A DNA stretch of 64,000 nucleotides from positions 136,898-200,897 of the forward strand of contig CAZKCV010000001.1 of assembly GCA_964551605.1 (NCBI GenBank), given 5' to 3'. Positions 3,304 through 64,000 of this stretch are shown here, piece by piece (the stretch's first letter is position 1; each line of letters begins with the position of its first letter). Source of the DNA: an uncultured Gammaproteobacteria bacterium. Lineage in GTDB: Bacteria > Patescibacteriota > Microgenomatia > Daviesbacterales > UBA10151. The notes beneath the pieces were generated by a model. The model was not told where the DNA came from, searched no databases, and saw only the letters and a list, made by a program, of their open reading frames with translations. The position numbers and the translations under genes were made by a program.

Positions 3304-4023
3304 TTGCTAAAAATTTTTATTTACCATATCATCTTAGGAGTAATGCTACTTAGACTTGTTGATAAAATAAAAGAAGCAGAAGATGTTACCTCATTTATCT
3401 TTAAGCCGGAAATGGCTTTTCCCTGGAAAGCGGGGCAGTTTTTACACTACACCCTCCCTCATCGAAATTTTGATGAACGTGGTCTTGAGCGTTATTTTAC
3501 GATTGCTTCCGCTCCACATGAGCAGGTAATCTACATAACTACCCGATTTGCTAAAGAGAAAGGCAGCAGTTTTAAGAAAGCCTTAAGATCGTTAAAATTA
3601 AACGATACCACAGAAGCTGTTGGCCCTGATGGAAATTTTACAGTAGATGATCCAAACCAAGAAATGGTCTTTATTGCCGGGGGAATCGGCATAACTCCTT
3701 TTAGAGCTATTCTGTTGGATCTTGAACATAAAAAAATATTCCCTAAGATTACCCTTCTATATTCCAATAAAACACCTGATTTCCCTTACATAAAACTTTT
3801 AGGTAAACTAATGAGACTCAACAGGAATTTAAGAATACATTATTTTATCGGCCCCAAAAGAATAAATGAAGACTCAATTAGGAAGATTGTTGAGAATTTA
3901 AAGAAGCCAATTTTTTATGTCTCCGGCCCCGGAGGCATGGTCAAAAATTTAAGTAATCAGCTAAAAGAAATCGGCGTACCAAAAGAACACATTAAGCAGG
4001 ACCTCTTCCCCGGCTATGATTAA
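3304..4023 (+). CDS. FAD/NAD(P)-binding oxidoreductase (ferredoxin-NADP reductase-like dehydrogenase module)
   Basis: R-YFTIAS FAD-binding motif and GGIGITP NAD(P) motif. Confidence 0.7.
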   Translation: MLKIFIYHIILGVMLLRLVDKIKEAEDVTSFIFKPEMAFPWKAGQFLHYTLPHRNFDERGLERYFTIASAPHEQVIYITTRFAKEKGSSFKKALRSLKLNDTTEAVGPDGNFTVDDPNQEMVFIAGGIGITPFRAILLDLEHKKIFPKITLLYSNKTPDFPYIKLLGKLMRLNRNLRIHYFIGPKRINEDSIRKIVENLKKPIFYVSGPGGMVKNLSNQLKEIGVPKEHIKQDLFPGYD

Positions 4024-4028
4024 TTAAA

Positions 4029-4637
4029 ATGAAATCATTCATCAAGGTTTTTATCTTAATCTTTCTTTTATTTATACTGATCGTGCCTATCATATTAATA
4101 AACCAGGAGCTTAGCTTTAAGAAAACTGCCGATCTATTATTTTTTATCCACCGTGGTTTAGGCTTATATGCTTTTTCCCTGATTTTTTTGGCATTAGTAA
4201 TGGGATCAACTATAACTTTACTGGACAGGCTTTTTACACCGGGTAAAGCTTTTGTCATTCATCAGGTAATTGCATCTTCAGGTTTTACCTTAGCAATTCT
4301 TCATCCGGTATTTTTGTTTAGCACTTATCTTTTAGAAGGTAATTTAAGTTATGTGATTCCCTTTTTATCAGGTATAAATCTTTTCTATTTTTTACTGGGA
4401 ATTTTTGCTTTGTTGCTACTTATATTAACTGTAACCTCAGCACTGTTACGCTTCAGGCTCGGCCCTCAATGGCTTTTTATCCACCGCCTCAACTACTTGG
4501 TATTTTGGTTAATTTTTTTCCATGGCTTAAACTTAGGCACCGATACCCAAACATATTTTGCCCGAATAATATTTTTAGCTTATGGATTAATTGTAAGCGC
4601 TATTACCATCCGTAGGCTCTTAGTTTACCGTATCTGA
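4029..4637 (+). CDS. Ferric-reductase-like transmembrane heme-binding protein
   Basis: 202 aa, about 6 TM helices with His residues spaced inside helices (IHR, ILHP, IHR, FHG). Starts 5 nt after the FNR-like gene. Confidence 0.55.
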   Translation: MKSFIKVFILIFLLFILIVPIILINQELSFKKTADLLFFIHRGLGLYAFSLIFLALVMGSTITLLDRLFTPGKAFVIHQVIASSGFTLAILHPVFLFSTYLLEGNLSYVIPFLSGINLFYFLLGIFALLLLILTVTSALLRFRLGPQWLFIHRLNYLVFWLIFFHGLNLGTDTQTYFARIIFLAYGLIVSAITIRRLLVYRI

Positions 4638-6368
4638 ATTAAATATTTCTGCTGCTGCCCGGATAATTTCATCATCTGCTGCCAGCTCTAAATTGGCAAT
4701 ATCTTCCCTTCTTTCCGGACGGCTACCCAATGCTGTGGAAACCCTGATGCCTCTGCCTAAGACGTCGGAAAAAACCCCTTCTAAAAGATCCCTATTCTTC
4801 GGCGCCTCCAGGATTCTTTGATGAAATGAATACGGAACCTCCAGTATGACGGTGTTCTCCGTGCACTTTCTAATACTAATGGACCTAAGTAATGCTTCTA
4901 ATGAATAATTAAAAGAACGCACTGTTTCCAATACAAAAGTCCACTTCTCTTTTAACTTAAAAATATCCAAAGAATCGGATGAGACAGTTGAAAACTCTGA
5001 TTGCTCCTTATTACTATGGGAATCTTCTCCTTTCAAAACTTTCTCAACCTCTTCCTGTCTTCTTGAGCTACTAGCATCGTCATTGCGAGGAGTCCCGACT
5101 TCAGTCGTGGACGACAAAGCAATCTTGGTGGGAATTTCTTCCGGACTAGATTGCTTCCCCCGGATCAAGTCCGGGGTCGCAATGACGGAAAAGGAAGTAC
5201 AAATTTCTACCACTGCCAGCTCCAGCGGTAATGACGGAATGGAAGCGAACTTTAATTTTTCCAGAGCTTTTTGCAAAATATCCAGTGCTTTAACTAAATC
5301 CCGACCGGATAAATTCTCTGACAATATTACCATCTGCTCATACTTATCTTCAGTAAGTTGAGGTTTAACCAACTGCCCTCCTACCTTATTTTTAATCAAC
5401 ATCAAGTTTCTTAAGGTATCCATTAAGGAAAGCGTTAATTCCCGAACATCTGCTCCATGCTCCAGCTGCCCTGATACATTCAGTAAGCTTTTTGCCGAAT
5501 CTTGCCTGAAAAGGTCTTTTACTAAATCCACAAGGTCATCAAAGGGGGTGGATTGAAGATTTTCCTGTAAATATTTAATTGTAACCTTAACTTTAGCAGC
5601 ACTTACCTGATCCAATAACTTGATGCCATCCCTAAAACTCCCTTCCGCTTTCTTTACTAAAAGCTTGAAGGCTTCCGGCTCAATATCAATTTGTTCTTCC
5701 TGAATTATTTTTTCAAAGGCGGCTGAGATCTCGCCCGGAGCAGCTAACTTAAAATCCAACCTTTGTACCCTGGATAGAATCGTCTGCGGGATTTTCCCCA
5801 GTTCGGTGGTTGCCAAAATAAACAACACATGTGCAGGAGGCTCCTCCAGAGTCTTAAGCAAGGCATTAAAGGCTTCCGTGGTTAACATATGTGCCTCATC
5901 AATGATGTATACTTTTTTCTTAAGAGAACTGGGTGAAAGCTTAATTTTTTCCCTTAGCGACCTAATGTCTTCAATTCCCCGGTTGGAAGCGGCGTCAATT
6001 TCAATAAGGTCCAAATTAGATCCGTCAGTAATGGAGATACACGTTGCGCATTTGTTACATGGGTAGTCATTAGTCTTCAGTATCGCTTCGCTCTCAGCTA
6101 TCAGACTTTTTTTGTCTTTGTCTGACGACTGACGACCGGTACCAATCGAAGATTGGTGGACTGACGACTTCTTCTCACAGTTAACCATCTTAGCTAAAAT
6201 CCGGGCGGTAGAAGTTTTACCTGTTCCCCTGGGGCCGACAAAAAGATAGGCGTGGGATAATTTATTGTTTTGAAAAGATGAAAGAAGAGTTTTTTTTACA
6301 GCTTCCTGACCCATTAGTTCTTGTAAAGTTTGAGGGCGGTACTTTAGATAATAAGCTATATTTCCCAT
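4620..6368 (-). CDS. dnaX: DNA polymerase III subunit gamma/tau
   Basis: Walker A GPRGTGKT, zinc module CNKCATC, tau linker. Contains two in-frame repeat-derived insertions. Confidence 0.9.
   Translation of the reverse strand: MGNIAYYLKYRPQTLQELMGQEAVKKTLLSSFQNNKLSHAYLFVGPRGTGKTSTARILAKMVNCEKKSSVHQSSIGTGRQSSDKDKKSLIAESEAILKTNDYPCNKCATCISITDGSNLDLIEIDAASNRGIEDIRSLREKIKLSPSSLKKKVYIIDEAHMLTTEAFNALLKTLEEPPAHVLFILATTELGKIPQTILSRVQRLDFKLAAPGEISAAFEKIIQEEQIDIEPEAFKLLVKKAEGSFRDGIKLLDQVSAAKVKVTIKYLQENLQSTPFDDLVDLVKDLFRQDSAKSLLNVSGQLEHGADVRELTLSLMDTLRNLMLIKNKVGGQLVKPQLTEDKYEQMVILSENLSGRDLVKALDILQKALEKLKFASIPSLPLELAVVEICTSFSVIATPDLIRGKQSSPEEIPTKIALSSTTEVGTPRNDDASSSRRQEEVEKVLKGEDSHSNKEQSEFSTVSSDSLDIFKLKEKWTFVLETVRSFNYSLEALLRSISIRKCTENTVILEVPYSFHQRILEAPKNRDLLEGVFSDVLGRGIRVSTALGSRPERREDIANLELAADDEIIRAAAEIFNSDTVN
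5079..5186. repeat. Palindromic element, family A (gtcattgcgagg...cctcgcaatgac), in frame inside dnaX
   Basis: About 108 bp. Its 3' arm is identical to the copy at 40278-40317. Confidence 0.8.
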
Positions 6369-12499: not shown

Positions 12500-12601
12500 A
12501 ATAGTCGTCAGCCATCAGCTGTCAGTCATAAGCTAAGCTTGCGAGCTTCGCTCTTCAGACAAATCAGAAAAGTCTGAAAGCTGAAGACTGAGGACTGAAG
12601 G

Positions 12602-13156
12602 CTATATCTGTATCAGTTCTTCTTCCTTGGCTTTACCTAATTGTTCAATTTCAGCCACCTTTTTATCTATCAGCTCCTGCAGAATTTTTTCCCTTCGGAA
12701 AAATTCATCCTCACCGAATTCCCCATCTTCGGAGGCTTTTTTCCAGCCATTTCTAAAATCCTGCCTGATTTGTCTGATCACCACATGAGCTTCTTCCTGT
12801 TTATGATGTAACAATTTTCTAAACTCTTCCCTTCTTTCCGCTGTTAAGGGAGGAATCGGTAAACGGATTAAGGTGCCTTCATTAGAAGGATTCAAACCCA
12901 AGTTTGCTTCCTGAATGGACTTGATCACCTTATCTAAAATTGAAGCATCCCAAACCTGCACTGTTAAAAGCGAAGGTTGGGGAGCAGAAATATTTCCCAC
13001 CTCATTAAGCTTCATATGGGATCCATATGCTTCCACCGGAATATTTTCTATTAAAGCGGGATTAGCCCGGCCGGCCCTGATTCCGGCAATTTCCGCCTTA
13101 AAATGGTGCAGTGCAGCATCAATCTTGTTGTTTGGTTCTGTTAATACAGGATCCAT
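12602..13156 (-). CDS. frr: Ribosome recycling factor
   Basis: 184 aa, RRF-like throughout. Part of the frr-tsf-rpsB cluster. Confidence 0.85.
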   Translation of the reverse strand: MDPVLTEPNNKIDAALHHFKAEIAGIRAGRANPALIENIPVEAYGSHMKLNEVGNISAPQPSLLTVQVWDASILDKVIKSIQEANLGLNPSNEGTLIRLPIPPLTAERREEFRKLLHHKQEEAHVVIRQIRQDFRNGWKKASEDGEFGEDEFFRREKILQELIDKKVAEIEQLGKAKEEELIQI

Positions 13157-20597: not shown

Positions 20598-20658
20598 AGA
20601 TTGCTTCACTACGTTCGCAATGACGTCATTGCGAGGAGCAAAGCGACGAAGCAATCTG
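20598..20658. repeat. Family A element, rearranged half-copies, intergenic between pyrG and topA
   Basis: agattgcttc...cgcaatgac followed by gtcattgcgagg...gacgaagcaatct. Confidence 0.7.
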
Positions 20659-20701: not shown

Positions 20702-22786
20702 CTACCGGATTGCAAGTATTGTTTCAGGAGCAACAACTTCTTTCTGATCTCCCTCAGGAACGACTGGCTTGGGTTTGGTCCAGCTGGCAAATTTACAGAC
20801 GGGCCAGTTTTTGCAGCCGTAGAAAGTTTTGCCCCTTTTAGTTCTTCTCACTACAATATCCCCGCCATCCTGGGGACATTTGGCGTTGACCTTTTCTTCC
20901 AAAGATTCCGTATGTTTACATTCCGGAAAACCGGAACAAGCCAGGAACTTCCCGAATCTTCCTACCCTAACAATTAATTCCTTACCGCAGTCGGGGCACT
21001 TTTTACCGGCAAATTGAACTTCCATTTTCACTTTCTGGGCTTCTTTCTTAGTCTGTTCTACCTTTTTCTCAAACGGTTGGTAAAAAGCCGCAATTGTGGG
21101 ACGCCACTGCCTTTCACCCCTGGCTATTTCATCTAATTCATCTTCTAAACTGGCCGTAAAAGTGTAATCTATAATATCAGAAAAATTTGCCATCAAAAAA
21201 TCAATTACCGTCATACCTAAAATAGTAGGTATAAATTTTCTATTTTCTTTTTCTACATAAAACCGCTCCTGAATGGTAGAAATTATCGGGGCATATGTTG
21301 AAGGCCGGCCTATACCCAGCTCTTCCAGCTTTTTAATTAAAGAGGCTTCATTATATCTAGGCGGAGGTTCGGTAAAATGCTGAGACGGTAAAAGCTGCAC
21401 CAAAGCAAGCAACTGACCCTCAGATAAAGTAGGCAAAACTTGCTTTTTTTCCTCCCCTTCTTCCTCCGCCTCTTTTCCGAAGAGCTTAAGCCAACCATCA
21501 AATCGAATCACGCTGCCGGTTGCCCGAAGTAAATATCCGTCATTGCGAGGAGTCTGCGACGAAGCAATCTCTTGATTTTCCGAGGAAGATTGCTTCGCTT
21601 CGCTCGCAATGACGTCGATGGTTGTTTGGTCCATAACCGCCTCATTCATCTGGCACGCCACAAACCTTTTCCAAATCAGATCATATAACCGTACATGGTC
21701 TTTATTGAAATTTCCCTTCCCCCTTAACCCTTCACCCTTTTCCCTTATGTCTGTTACCCGAATCGCCTCATGCGCTTCCTGGGCATTTTTTGATTTAGAC
21801 TTAAAAACCCTGGCAACAGAAGGCAAATAAGTTTTACCGATAAAATTCTCTATGTATGTTCTGACAGCCCCGATTGCCTGAGTTGATAAATTAACGGAAT
21901 CTGTTCTCATATAAGTGATCAGTCCGTGTTCATACAAGGCCTGGGCAAGCATCATGGTCTTTTTGGCTGACATTCCCAATTTATTAGCCCCGGCTTGCTG
22001 CAGGGTTGAAGTTGTAAAAGGCGGGTATGGGTAGCGGCGGACTTCTTTTTGTGTAATTTTGGAGATGTTATACTGAGCCTTTTCCAGATTTTTGACATGC
22101 CCATCCGCTTCTTCCTTATTTTTGATTTCCAGCTTTTTGCCATCTTTTTCTATTAAATTGGCAATGAAACTGTTGCCTGTTGCCTGTTGCCTGTTGCCTT
22201 CCAGCTCTACCTCAATATTCCAATATTCCTCCGGCTTAAAGGCCTTTATCTCCCTTTCCCGTTCCACTATCAGCCTTAAAGCTACTGATTGAACCCGGCC
22301 GGCAGATAAGCCCTTTTTAACCTTTTCCCATAAAAGCGGTGAGAGTTTATAACCCACTAATCTATCTAAAACCCGTCTGGCCTGCTGGGCATCAACCAGT
22401 TTAAGATCAATAGGCCGGGGGTTTTCAAATGCCTCTTTAATGGCATCCTCAGTAATTTCATGAAAAACCACCCGCTTGGTATCTTTAGAATCATTTAATA
22501 CACCGGCTAAATGCCAGGCAATTGCCTCTCCTTCCCGATCAGGGTCTGTGGCTAGCCATAAAGACTCCGCTCTCTCAGCTACCTTCTTTAATTCATTAAC
22601 CCTTTTTTTCTTATCACGGGGAATAATGTATTTAGGATCAAAATTATGCTCAACATCTATTCCAAGCTCGGATTTCGGCAAATCCCGGATATGGCCCATT
22701 GAAGCCTCAATTTGATATTTATCACCCAGAAACTTTTGAAGTGTTTTCGCCTTAGTCGGTGATTCAACAATTACTAAATTCTGCAT
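20702..22786 (-). CDS. topA: DNA topoisomerase I with C-terminal zinc ribbons
   Basis: Toprim N-terminus and multiple C4 zinc ribbons. Carries in-frame repeat insertions. Confidence 0.9.
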   Translation of the reverse strand: MQNLVIVESPTKAKTLQKFLGDKYQIEASMGHIRDLPKSELGIDVEHNFDPKYIIPRDKKKRVNELKKVAERAESLWLATDPDREGEAIAWHLAGVLNDSKDTKRVVFHEITEDAIKEAFENPRPIDLKLVDAQQARRVLDRLVGYKLSPLLWEKVKKGLSAGRVQSVALRLIVEREREIKAFKPEEYWNIEVELEGNRQQATGNSFIANLIEKDGKKLEIKNKEEADGHVKNLEKAQYNISKITQKEVRRYPYPPFTTSTLQQAGANKLGMSAKKTMMLAQALYEHGLITYMRTDSVNLSTQAIGAVRTYIENFIGKTYLPSVARVFKSKSKNAQEAHEAIRVTDIREKGEGLRGKGNFNKDHVRLYDLIWKRFVACQMNEAVMDQTTIDVIASEAKQSSSENQEIASSQTPRNDGYLLRATGSVIRFDGWLKLFGKEAEEEGEEKKQVLPTLSEGQLLALVQLLPSQHFTEPPPRYNEASLIKKLEELGIGRPSTYAPIISTIQERFYVEKENRKFIPTILGMTVIDFLMANFSDIIDYTFTASLEDELDEIARGERQWRPTIAAFYQPFEKKVEQTKKEAQKVKMEVQFAGKKCPDCGKELIVRVGRFGKFLACSGFPECKHTESLEEKVNAKCPQDGGDIVVRRTKRGKTFYGCKNWPVCKFASWTKPKPVVPEGDQKEVVAPETILAIR
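21539..21613. repeat. Family A element in frame inside topA
   Basis: About 75 bp. Encodes VIASEAKQSSSENQEIASSQTPRND. Confidence 0.8.
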
Positions 22787-33283: not shown

Positions 33284-33374
33284 GTCATTGCGAGGAACGA
33301 GTCATCGAGTGACGTGGCAATCTTGATGTGGGATTCATCCGACCTAGATTGCTTCGCTAATCGCTCGCAATGAC
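33284..33374. repeat. Family A element, intergenic between pyrD and mreB
   Basis: gtcattgcgaggaacg...agattgcttcgctaatcgctcgcaatgac. Confidence 0.8.
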
Positions 33375-39361: not shown

Positions 39362-39667
39362 TTACACTAGTGTCATTATTTGCTTACCGGGTAAGCGGAA
39401 CATAGGGATAGCGGCATTTTCACATTGCCGACGTACTTCTTCCAAGTCATCAGTCATGGATGTTATCATTTTAAGAAAAAGTGGCTTACTAACTTTAGAT
39501 CTTGTCCTGGTGTAGAAATTCGGATCTAGGACCAATCGCACTGACTGATAACTCACTCCGGCACGCTTTGCTAGCTGGGCTATATTTACCCCCTTTTTTT
39601 CCATAAAAGCAGCAAATCCGGCCGCTAATTCTGGAGTCCTGGGAACATAATATTCTTTGTAGCTCAT
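39362..39667 (-). CDS. Hypothetical HTH-like protein
   Basis: 101 aa. VNIAQLAKRAGVSYQSVR helix-turn-helix. Confidence 0.4.
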   Translation of the reverse strand: MSYKEYYVPRTPELAAGFAAFMEKKGVNIAQLAKRAGVSYQSVRLVLDPNFYTRTRSKVSKPLFLKMITSMTDDLEEVRRQCENAAIPMFRLPGKQIMTLV

Positions 39668-40223: not shown

Positions 40224-40317
40224 GTCATTGCGAGGAACGAAGTGACGAAGCAATCTTGGTAGTGATTAAACATTAACTAGATTGCTTCCCCCGGATCAAG
40301 TCCGGGGTCGCAATGAC
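40224..40317. repeat. Family A element, intergenic between def and fmt
   Basis: gtcattgcgaggaacgaagtgacgaagcaatct...agattgcttcccccggatcaagtccggggtcgcaatgac. Confidence 0.8.
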
Positions 40318-40328
40318 GAAATAAAAAA

Positions 40329-61887: not shown

Positions 61888-62080
61888 GCCTAATATATTT
61901 GGATTTCTAAATGAAGTTAAAGAAGAATTAGCTAAGGTAACCTGGCCCAGCCGGGAAGAAACTGTCCGTTATACGGTTCTGGTTATCCTGGTCGCGGCTG
62001 TGGTTGGTTTGTTCTTAGGTGGCCTGGATTATATCCTAACCAGCATTACCACCTTTATAATAGGAAACTATGGACGATAA
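61886..62080 (+). CDS. secE: Preprotein translocase subunit SecE
   Basis: 64 aa. TWPSREETVRYTVLVILVAAVVGLFLGGLDYIL single TM. Start trimmed to MPNIFG. Confidence 0.8.
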   Translation: MPNIFGFLNEVKEELAKVTWPSREETVRYTVLVILVAAVVGLFLGGLDYILTSITTFIIGNYGR

Positions 62081-62987
62081 AAATCAAAAAACAGAAGAAA
62101 AAGTTTCAGAAGTAACAGACGCTTCTGAGGAACCTGTTGTAGAAGAAACCACTGAATCAAATCAGCCGGAAGAGGCTTCCTCTCCTGTCATTGCGAGTGA
62201 AACCGAAGGTGAAACGAAGCAATCTTCCACGGATGAAGAAGATCGCCACGTCGTCCCGCAAAGCGGGACTCCTCGCGATGACGAAGAAATAAACAAAGAC
62301 GAAGCCGTAGTAGAAGAATCTACAAAAGAACCTGAAGCGCAAGTAAACGAACCAGGTGAGACTCCAGCTGCCGAAGAACCAACTACATCCGATGAGCCTA
62401 CTCCAGCCACCCACGAGTCGACTGAACCACAAGAATCCGCCTCCCCTACCAAAAATGATAATCCTAATGCCAAATGGTATGTTGTTCATACCTATTCCGG
62501 CCATGAAAACAAGGTGGCCCATACCTTAAAACAGCGGGTAGAATCCGAGCATCTGGAAGAGAAAATCCTGGAAATCCTGGTTCCCATGCAGGATAAAATT
62601 GAAATCAAAGGCGGCAAAAAGGTTAATGTCAAGGAAAAAATCTTCCCCGGCTATATTTTGGTCAAGATGGTCCTGGATGATATCTCCTGGCTGGTTGTCA
62701 GGACTACCCAGGGAGTAACTGCTTTTGTCGGTATAGGCAATAAACCCACTCCAATTTCTGAGGCTGAAGTACAAACTATTGTTAAATTTACCCAAACAGA
62801 AGCTCCAATGTACAAACAAGTGTTTGCCGTATCTGATGCGGTTAAAATCGTAGACGGCCCGTTTGCTGATTTTATTGGTAAAATCGACAGTGTTGATGAA
62901 GAAAAAGGTAAAGTCCGGGTCCTGGTTTCCATCTTTGGTAGGGAAACCCCGGTTGAGTTGGACTTTTTGCAAGTTCAGAAATTATAA
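62070..62987 (+). CDS. nusG: Transcription antiterminator NusG with ~125-aa acidic N-terminal extension
   Basis: NGN domain KWYVVHTYSGHENKV and KOW domain KIVDGPFADFIGKI. The extension contains a palindromic repeat in frame. Confidence 0.85.
   Translation: MDDKNQKTEEKVSEVTDASEEPVVEETTESNQPEEASSPVIASETEGETKQSSTDEEDRHVVPQSGTPRDDEEINKDEAVVEESTKEPEAQVNEPGETPAAEEPTTSDEPTPATHESTEPQESASPTKNDNPNAKWYVVHTYSGHENKVAHTLKQRVESEHLEEKILEILVPMQDKIEIKGGKKVNVKEKIFPGYILVKMVLDDISWLVVRTTQGVTAFVGIGNKPTPISEAEVQTIVKFTQTEAPMYKQVFAVSDAVKIVDGPFADFIGKIDSVDEEKGKVRVLVSIFGRETPVELDFLQVQKL
62187..62282. repeat. Family A element in frame in the nusG N-terminal extension
   Basis: About 96 bp. Encodes VIASETEGETKQSS...SGTPRDDEE. 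Confidence 0.75.
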
Positions 62988-63508: not shown

Positions 63509-64000
63509 ATGGGACGACCAAGATTAAAAATTATTGATGATGCACAGGAAGAAACTGAAGAGAAGCTTTCCAAAAAGAAAGCTAAAAAGCCGGAAATAAA
63601 GACTGAAGCATCAATTCCAGACGTCATTGCGAGCGACGCCGAAGGCGGAACGAAGCAATCCAACTCGGAAGAAACTCCCACCCAGATTGCTTCGTCGCAG
63701 ACTCCTCGCAATGACAAAGAGAAGAAAGCCCGAAAACCCGGCAAAGCCAAGCCCCGATCCAAAAAGTATCAAGAAGTTGTCAAAGACCTGGACAAAACCA
63801 AGGCTTATCCCCTTTCCGAAGCAGTTGAGCTGGTTAAGAAACTTTCCTACTCTAAATTTGATGGTAGTCTGGAAGCCCATGTCAACACTGCACAAACCGG
63901 AATCCGTGGTTTAGTCTCCTTGCCCTATGCTGCCGGTAGGAAACTGCGCATCTTGGCTTTTGGCAAAGGAGCGGAAACTTCAGGGGCTGACACGGTTGGT
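63509..64000 (+). CDS. rplA: 50S ribosomal protein L1 (partial at 3' end, with ~80-aa Lys-rich N-terminal extension)
   Basis: Core SKKYQEVVKDLDKTKAYPLSEAVELVKK...LPYAAGRKLRILAFGKG. Runs off the window. Not in the ORF track because no stop codon is reached. Confidence 0.8.
   Translation, partial: MGRPRLKIIDDAQEETEEKLSKKKAKKPEIKTEASIPDVIASDAEGGTKQSNSEETPTQIASSQTPRNDKEKKARKPGKAKPRSKKYQEVVKDLDKTKAYPLSEAVELVKKLSYSKFDGSLEAHVNTAQTGIRGLVSLPYAAGRKLRILAFGKGAETSGADTVG
63623..63715. repeat. Family A element in frame in the rplA N-terminal extension
   Basis: Encodes VIASDAEGGTKQSNSEETPTQIASSQTPRND. Confidence 0.75.

Follow-up and report, generated by a model that had tools for sequence, protein, structure and literature searches.

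Short palindromic repeats that lie in frame within protein-coding genes are already a known kind of element. Rickettsia palindromic elements (RPEs) measure ∼150 bp (PMC10969869); among the repetitive extragenic palindromes (REPs), many intragenic copies were reported in replication and repair genes by Di Nocera et al. 2013, and in canonical CGTC REPs a loop of 4-5 nt is combined with a CCA tail (PMC3733652). Here we describe two hairpin repeats within dnaX, the gene of the DNA polymerase III tau/gamma clamp-loader ATPase, in a 64-kb stretch of contig CAZKCV010000001.1 (hereafter the window). Both elements belong to multi-copy families, denoted A and B; both are in frame and free of stops, are absent or different in close orthologues, and lie in low-confidence loops flanked by confidently folded catalytic and zinc motifs that are fully conserved. 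A sequence-only reading of this DNA had proposed two independent repeat-derived in-frame insertions in dnaX, and this proposal stands: the two elements come from two families, and each element is missing from some close orthologues. We consider it probable that the two hairpin families have been taken up into the reading frame of dnaX and add translated loop peptides to its product; they would be selfish or neutral DNA that is kept where it is tolerated. Hairpin repeats of this kind would spread as selfish or neutral DNA, selection would purge intragenic copies unless they are in frame, stop-free and placed in a permissive surface loop, and the clamp loader would work despite the inserts, not because of them.

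The dnaX open reading frame (ORF; 4620..6368, minus strand) is intact and encodes 582 amino acids. Its product is the DnaX clamp-loader ATPase. The protein contains the Pfam domains DNA_pol3_delta2 (4.7e-41), DNAX_ATPase_lid, DNA_pol3_gamma3 (residues 279-400) and DnaX_C (471-550), and phmmer matched it to E. coli gamma/tau in the PDB with E ∼1e-55. An AlphaFold2 model yielded a mean predicted local distance difference test score (pLDDT) of 82, and a Foldseek search with it ranked E. coli clamp-loader chains best (target-normalised TM-scores up to 0.86-0.90). An identical protein is present in the public database (P0001); relatives sharing 57-72% identity are named Candidatus Daviesbacteria, a group of the candidate phyla radiation (CPR). 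The Walker A motif read from the translation, GPRGTGKT (residues 45-52; 6213..6236, minus strand), four cysteines and other DnaX motifs are invariant in an alignment of 115 homologues.

Insert 2, a family B hairpin with 7-nt-periodic arms, comprises 105 nt or 35 codons (∼6066..6170, minus strand; residues 67-101, KSSVHQSS...LKTND). The phmmer alignment with the E. coli protein breaks exactly at this element: residues 8-66 match E. coli 8-66, which end in LNCET, and residues 102-258 match E. coli 71-227, which start with TPCGVCDNC. Cys64 (NCE; 6177..6179, minus strand) precedes the insert and aligns with E. coli Cys64, and Cys104-x2-Cys107-x2-Cys110 (PCNKCATC; 6039..6059, minus strand; pLDDT ∼90) follows it and aligns with C73/C76/C79; all four residues are among the invariant columns. 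In gamma-complex structures, E. coli C64, C73, C76 and C79 are the zinc ligands of domain I. With C64 before it and C104, C107 and C110 after it, insert 2 is located inside the four-cysteine module predicted to bind zinc, between ligands 1 and 2, and not between the Walker A box and the zinc module, where it had been placed by the sequence-only reading. Ligands 1 and 2 are separated by 39 residues here, whereas the E. coli protein has 8 residues between them and 68 of 120 close homologues have 5-8; the insertion is confirmed. That this spacing is normally tight was thus correct for E. coli and for these 68 homologues, but not throughout this clade, as loops of 9-13 residues occur in 14 and insert-bearing loops of 14-43 residues in 38 of the 120. 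Among 144 representatives of 50%-identity clusters, in which the loop was counted one residue longer, 83 have at most 9 residues and 46 carry inserts with a loop of 15-49. Similarly, the extra peptide assigned to 6062-6180 is found at residues 65-102 (EKKSSVHQSS...KTNDY; 6063-6176), but its claimed length of ∼40 residues has to be lowered to 35 codons for the element and to a net gain of ∼32 residues over the basal loop. In the AlphaFold2 model, the pLDDT drops to 56-65 over residues 71-100 and is ∼90 on both sides, and a weakly supported helix is predicted at residues 86-96. Low values in the inserts next to values of 90 or more in their flanks are consistent with exposed loops in this predicted single-chain model.

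On the coding strand, insert 2 (6066-6170) reads AGTCGTCAGTC[CACCAATCTTCGATTGGTACCG]GTCGTCAGTCGTCAGAC-AAAGACAAAAAAA-GTCTGATAGCTGAGAGCGAAGCGATACTGAAGACTAATGAC. Its two arms, one a series of TCAGnnn and the other of nnnCTGA 7-nt repeats, enclose a hairpin centre composed of TCAGAC, a 13-nt A-rich loop and GTCTGA (6101..6125; inverted repeat I10). The 13-nt loop AAAGACAAAAAAA is identical in an in-frame copy of a radA-like gene at L029 (L-numbers denote dnaX or repeat loci from other genomes). Nested in the left arm is a small palindromic piece of ∼22 nt that contains CCAATCTTCGATTGG and encodes about HQSSIGTG (6137..6158); it is missing from the dnaX family B copies of L001-L004, no second copy of CCAATCTTCGATTGG was found in the window or in the compared loci (837 kb of sequence), and analogous nested mini-hairpins are present in L011 and L085. 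The minimum free energy (MFE) calculated for 6062-6180, which spans the insert, is -32 kcal/mol. Seven consecutive A also stand in the coding strand of the loop (6107-6113; GACAAAAAAAGT), within an essential gene; this is a potential slippage site but no in-phase slippery heptamer.

The second insert had been described as a degenerate copy of the family A type, an assignment that has to be abandoned: it contains no family A cores and has the heptad-armed hairpin of family B, whose general form is (TCAGnnn)n-TCAGAC-loop-GTCTGA-(nnnCTGA)n. The hairpin-centre pattern TCAGAY, 3-15 nt, AAGTCTGAHAGCTGA was run against one genome of each bacterial species and yielded 103 matches in 95 stretches, against ∼21 expected by chance according to our own estimate, and at least 71 of the 103 possess heptad arms. 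Most matches lie in metagenome-assembled genomes (MAGs) of Daviesbacteria and other Patescibacteria; the copies are numerous within a genome, and JAQUSJ01 has at least 17. An nhmmer profile built from 82 copies of other genomes recognized two sites only in the window, 12500-12615 (E 4.3e-19) and 6057-6138 (E 1.9e-14); a profile of the right arm only, a part outside the scan pattern, matched 6053-6102 (E 6.9e-9). The similarity of 6062-6180 to a repeat family that the sequence-only reading had anticipated is therefore present at the nucleotide level, and the profile and right-arm matches show that insert 2 is a genuine member of the dispersed family B. RNAalifold on the 82 copies recovered only the hairpin centre, which is itself fixed by the scan pattern, and MAFFT lost the register of the arms.

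Apart from insert 2, the window has a single family B copy (12500..12606), which occupies the spacer between an rseP-like gene and frr. It was also the single related sequence that permissive blastn returned for insert 2 in the window (12503-12601; 59 nt, 73% identity), and it has no open frame. By eye only, its flanks resemble those in L079, L032, L090 and L099; an extra segment, AAGCTAAGCTTGCGAGCTTCGCTC, is nested in its left arm. A third candidate at 39446-39552, suggested by a heptad-motif match, was rejected as ordinary coding sequence of a small ORF. Many family B copies were also seen in MAGs titled 'uncultured Gammaproteobacteria' (L011, L013, L016, L022, L032 and others; CAYQAW01, CAYNFQ01, CAZFZP01), some of them, judged by eye, in the same spacers as in Daviesbacteria genomes. 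Probably either these MAGs are mislabelled or the host range of the repeats is much broader.

Alternatively, insert 2 could have been built in place by slippage of 7-nt tandem repeats and template switching within dnaX, without a dispersed element. Its arms are tandem heptads whose number varies between orthologues (four CAGTCGT units in the dnaX elements of L001 and L003, fewer here), and L106 has a one-sided (AGTCAAG)x4 array only. CAG and GATAAG in the short loop of L104 (GAAGATCAGGATAAGGCG) recur at the end and in the loop of the L001 element; the array might conceivably have grown or collapsed in situ, and L104 could carry a collapsed remnant and not a never-occupied site. However, the non-heptad right arm GAGCGAAGCGATACTGAAGACT and the whole architecture match unrelated loci elsewhere, as the right-arm profile documents, and the central 13-nt loop recurs unchanged in the radA-like copy. 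In addition, more than 70 armed copies are scattered over many loci, and in other genomes the same complete element is seen at many sites within one genome. We consider an in-place origin to be very unlikely.

Insert 1 is a family A palindromic element of 108 nt or 36 codons (5079..5186, minus strand; residues 395-430, VIATPD...TPRND), and here the sequence-only reading, which had identified a family A copy in the tau-specific linker, proved accurate. Members of the family are built as CGTCATTGCGAG...GAAGCAATCT-loop-AGATTGCTTC...CTCGCAATGACG and carry small hairpin modules between their stems. Insert 1 is bounded by perfect 11-nt terminal inverted repeats, CGTCATTGCGA and TCGCAATGACG (5078-5088 / 5177-5187; pair I4), and its inner hairpin GAAGCAATCT..AGATTGCTTC is located at 5117-5134 / 5139-5156. 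Its in-frame peptide, VIATPDLIRGKQSSPEEIPTKIALSSTTEVGTPRND, belongs to the linker that joins domain III of DnaX to the C-terminal domain, where it coincides with the beginning of a stretch (residues 397-463) that AlphaFold2 leaves disordered with pLDDT <50.

The same linker position is occupied in L005 by a family A copy, followed by the identical 3' flank GATGCTAGT in the DNA comparison; the two copies differ mainly by extra small hairpin modules here. This correspondence indicates that the linker insertion is probably older than the present genome. One 46-nt module of insert 1 (5145..5190; repeat family D3), which consists of the small hairpin CCCCGGATCAAGTCCGGGG and the terminal repeat, is 98% identical to part of an intergenic family A copy (40276-40321) and missing from the orthologous L005 copy, which suggests that family A copies within this genome exchange sequence. 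Other GTCAT...ATGAC elements are present at the linker site in L004 and L008, L001-L003, L006 and L007 have none, and heptad-type peptides (e.g. CGEQSSVVS) open the linker in many homologues.

Family A is represented in the window by six full copies and one head-to-head pair of half units. The core GTCATTGCGA gave 15 matches where 2.4 were expected; taken with the inner core, the expectations are 2.4 and 6.1 for terminal and inner cores, again against 15 matches. Besides dnaX, full copies are found at 21539-21613, 33284-33374, 40224-40317, 62187-62282 and 63623-63715. The half units (..TCGCAATGAC|GTCATTGCGA..; 20598-20657) lie between topA and pyrG, and the predicted pyrG ORF, with a TTG start at 20654, begins within this repeat (MLRRFAPRNDVIAN..). 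The genuine start is probably the methionine of MKYIFVTGG, the repeats here creating a false N-terminal extension. The copy at 40224-40317 lies in the def-fmt spacer, a place that is taken by a family B copy in several related MAGs (L020, L022, L023, L056); in these MAGs the def stop codon is overlapped by the left end of the copy, ATAG, and its right end abuts the fmt start codon.

The reading frames of the repeats follow a consistent pattern. The four intragenic family A copies of the window measure 108 (dnaX), 75 (topA), 96 (nusG) and 93 nt (rplA), and they share one hydrophilic reading frame, VIA[ST]..KQS..PR[ND]D, although other open frames exist; PRND is present in three and PRDD in nusG. 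For the intergenic copies, of 91 and 94 nt, 0-1 frames are open. The topA copy, VIASEAKQSSSENQEIASSQTPRND (21539-21613; topA ORF 20702-22786, minus strand), is inserted in frame between ..DQTTID and GYLLRATG, and the same place holds a family B copy in L062 and L075, that is, a fixed site with different families. Both the nusG copy (62187-62282; ORF 62070-62987, plus strand) and the rplA copy (63623-63715; rplA from ∼63503, running off the window) lie in frame in long acidic N-terminal extensions, in the latter case of ribosomal protein L1.

Both dnaX inserts, of 108 and 105 nt, are multiples of three, contain no stop and keep the host frame. Most family B copies are closed in all six frames (65/82; exactly one open frame in the other 17/82) because three forward nnnCTGA heptads put TGA in every frame. 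Insert 2 has one stop-free frame of six, namely the one in use, and it is open because the non-heptad segment AGCGAAGCGATA resets the phase. In-frame family B copies of other genomes interrupt gyrA, the gene of the ATP synthase alpha subunit (atpA), a radA-like ATPase gene, tgt and topA, and these share the frame ..QSSVVSRQ..SLKADSEAILK..; the first four come from L016, L026, L029 and L036. The radA-like copy is located just past the Walker A helix, a position analogous to that in dnaX, and its peptide NQSSVVSRQSSDKDKKSLIADSEAILKADDS in L029 nearly equals that of insert 2. As constraints on frame and stops would be pointless if the inserts were removed from the RNA or the protein, we infer that the inserts are translated.

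It could be argued that the inserts are functional, either as a new interaction surface of the clamp loader or as mRNA or DNA hairpins that regulate dnaX, for example by stimulating a gamma/tau-like frameshift. E. coli makes gamma by frameshifting just after domain III of DnaX; insert 1 is located just after domain III, and its hairpin is very stable (MFE -57 kcal/mol). Both sites are occupied in many lineages, the intragenic copies always use the hydrophilic frame, and AlphaFold2 places a helix in insert 2. On the other hand, the occupants of the two sites are unrelated in sequence between lineages and are absent from alleles whose flanks are 96-98% identical, the pLDDT of the inserts is low, and the same repeats occur in many unrelated proteins and spacers. 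A programmed frameshift at the insert 1 hairpin was rejected, as no in-phase X XXY YYZ slippery heptamer was found upstream on reading by eye. A functional role thus seems to us unlikely, and we return to the probable reading of selfish or neutral hairpins that are tolerated as coding sequence.

The distribution of the elements among relatives was followed at the DNA level. A family B element is found at the same zinc-loop site in L001, L002, L003 and L004. The zinc loop of L006 carries a family-A-like element (GTCATTCCGAG...CTCGCAATGAC), that of L007 a third element type (GTCATTCTGG...CCAGAATGAC), and those of L008, L105 and L106 other heptad arrays; L005/P0003, among the closest relatives, has an empty loop, CEKPDSTPC. 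Several alleles are near-isogenic and differ only in the loop cassette: L001, with family B and a 31-residue loop, and L104, with the loop EDQDKA plus Pro, have flanking dnaX DNA that is 98.5% and 96.2% identical, and L004, L105 and L106 have three different cassettes between flanks that are 90-98% identical. Different cassettes between near-identical flanks point to a zinc loop that changes faster than the surrounding gene diverges. The carriers of family B are not mutual nearest relatives in a neighbour-joining (NJ) tree calculated without support values. From these comparisons, the zinc loop and the linker appear to be recurrent, fast-changing insertion hot spots in related genomes.

The same comparisons bear on the concern that the inserts reflect misassembly or decay of the gene to a pseudogene. 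The source is apparently a metagenome assembly, since the relatives are MAGs, and repeats are classic sites of assembly error. Nevertheless, the ORF is intact with all motifs, and the length of each insert is divisible by three. Independent NCBI, ENA and JGI assemblies moreover agree in having the same family B element at the same site, other hairpin elements occupy the zinc loop in Logan assemblies, and L005 repeats the family A copy at the linker position. An artefact is hardly credible in view of these matches.

How the repeats are copied can be narrowed only in part. Transposition in trans, hairpin-targeted insertion, and recombination or gene conversion between copies would all be candidates. 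Recombination, or insertion into hairpins already present, is favoured by the modules common to several copies and by the exchange of families at a fixed site. Family swaps at one site, nested mini-palindromes (6137-6158; L011, L085) and the common modules hint that resident hairpins may attract other hairpins or recombine with them.

Several points weigh against the reading of tolerated mobile hairpins. No target-site duplication was seen in the flanks of the six family A copies, and none is evident at the family B copies. No transposase or other mobilisation signature turned up, although no transposase screen of the window or genome was made. Copies that seem to share a site between genomes (the linker of dnaX in L005, by DNA comparison; the rseP-frr spacer and the topA site, by eye on the flanks only) fit old vertical inheritance as well as active mobility, and the NJ tree behind the distribution argument carries no support values. 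The case for translation is built on frame conservation and the intragenic frame bias, and the predicted helix at residues 86-96 together with the invariably hydrophilic frame leaves room for a possible function of the peptide.

A more far-reaching proposal is that the Cys1-Cys2 loop of dnaX, the topA site DQTT(I/V)D|..|YLLRATG and the def-fmt spacer are landing pads, at which different hairpin families are inserted, nested and replaced faster than the gene diverges. We put it forward tentatively, as a possibility that we doubt but take seriously. If it were true, CPR bacteria would possess a structure-directed mechanism, and not random insertion followed by selection; candidates would be an enzyme of HUH/Y1 type that recognises hairpins, or template switching from hairpin to hairpin during replication. 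The surface loops of essential replication proteins would then be continually remodelled.

The gene order yqeY-ybeY-dnaX upstream is kept in L001, L002, L004 and L007, and the ybeY stop overlaps the start of dnaX (6368). On the downstream side, dnaX is followed by glyA-folD-ybaB-recR in relatives, whereas in the window a membrane protein gene and an oxidoreductase-like ORF lie on the opposite strand (4029-4637 and 3304-4023). Because the downstream genes differ from those of the relatives, this region is locally rearranged in the window. A gene for a bAvd / 23S-rRNA-IVP-like four-helix bundle separates ybaB from recR, at a distance of a few kb to dnaX, in L001 (8796-9167) and L004 (14178-14606). 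No reverse transcriptase was listed near this gene in L001 and L004, and no template repeat was seen. A diversity-generating retroelement was rejected as the source of loop variation, which consists of whole-cassette replacement and not of adenine-specific substitution.

The observations bear on clamp-loader architecture, annotation and mobile DNA. The metal-binding module of an essential replication ATPase, with binding as predicted, can be split by 30-40 repeat-encoded residues, and this is repeated in the small, streamlined genomes of CPR bacteria. The near-isogenic pairs represent a natural experiment that reveals loops of the clamp loader, topoisomerase I, gyrase, ATP synthase and other proteins tolerating foreign peptides. 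For annotation, repeat-encoded peptides inflate apparent divergence and create false N-terminal extensions, as in the pyrG ORF. If the hot spots reflected targeted insertion, an as yet undescribed mechanism of hairpin-DNA mobilisation would be at work in CPR bacteria.

Literature searches with the repeat strings GTCATTGCGAG and VIASEAKQS returned unrelated primer matches only, and nothing specific was found on in-frame palindromes in CPR bacteria. As far as this limited search goes, the CPR setting, the heptad-armed family, the split zinc module and the fixed sites at which elements are repeatedly and rapidly replaced appear to be new. Family A resembles the CGTC REPs in its CGTC...GACG ends, its 8-9-bp stem starting with AT (ATTGCGAG) and its head-to-head units (20598-20657); a C precedes the GTCATTGCGAG end in 5/6 copies, a G follows the other end in 5/6, and both are present in 4/6. 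As with CGTC and GTAG REPs, some copies are intragenic in DNA-metabolism genes, and CGTC REPs have no known dedicated transposase (PMC3733652). In contrast to CGTC REPs, family A has 53-86 nt with further hairpins between its outer stems and lacks the CCA tail. Membership in the CGTC REPs is not established, and we do not file family A there.

Family B is reminiscent of the TAACTGA repeats of Beggiatoaceae, Cyanobacteria and Bacteroidetes (PMC4679880), with arms of nnnCTGA / TCAGnnn heptads. Forward arrays of those repeats give stops in three frames and the reverse reads as an LSVISYQ-like peptide, here SVVSRQS; many family B copies abut start codons, judged by eye, as was reported for TAACTGA (PMC4679880). 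The family B heptads are, however, CAGTCGT, CAGCTAT and similar units, not TAACTGA, that have only CTGA/TCAG in common, and frame-compatible variants occur in essential genes. Family B furthermore consists of two opposed arrays around a hairpin centre, whereas MacGregor 2015 found one indirect repeat among 170 sets (PMC4679880). Bacterial miniature inverted-repeat transposable elements such as ERIC and QMITE1 (PMC10969869) are likewise small non-autonomous repeats with terminal inverted repeats and in-frame fusions; they differ from family A, whose six copies lack a target-site duplication and for which no parent insertion sequence was identified.

A close likeness exists to the RPEs, which are short dispersed palindromes found in frame in unrelated, often essential genes of small genomes, and which are thought to be tolerated at permissive positions with their peptides translated (Ogata et al. 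2000, summarised in PMC10969869). That selfish hairpins are retained only where they are tolerated would, by analogy, follow the logic proposed for RPEs and for intragenic REPs. The sequences are unrelated to those of RPEs, the copies here are shorter (75-108 nt), they fall into two families of which one has 7-nt periodic arms, and the host belongs to the CPR. They differ from RPEs, finally, in that different families occupy one and the same loop in close relatives, which amounts to rapid turnover at fixed sites.

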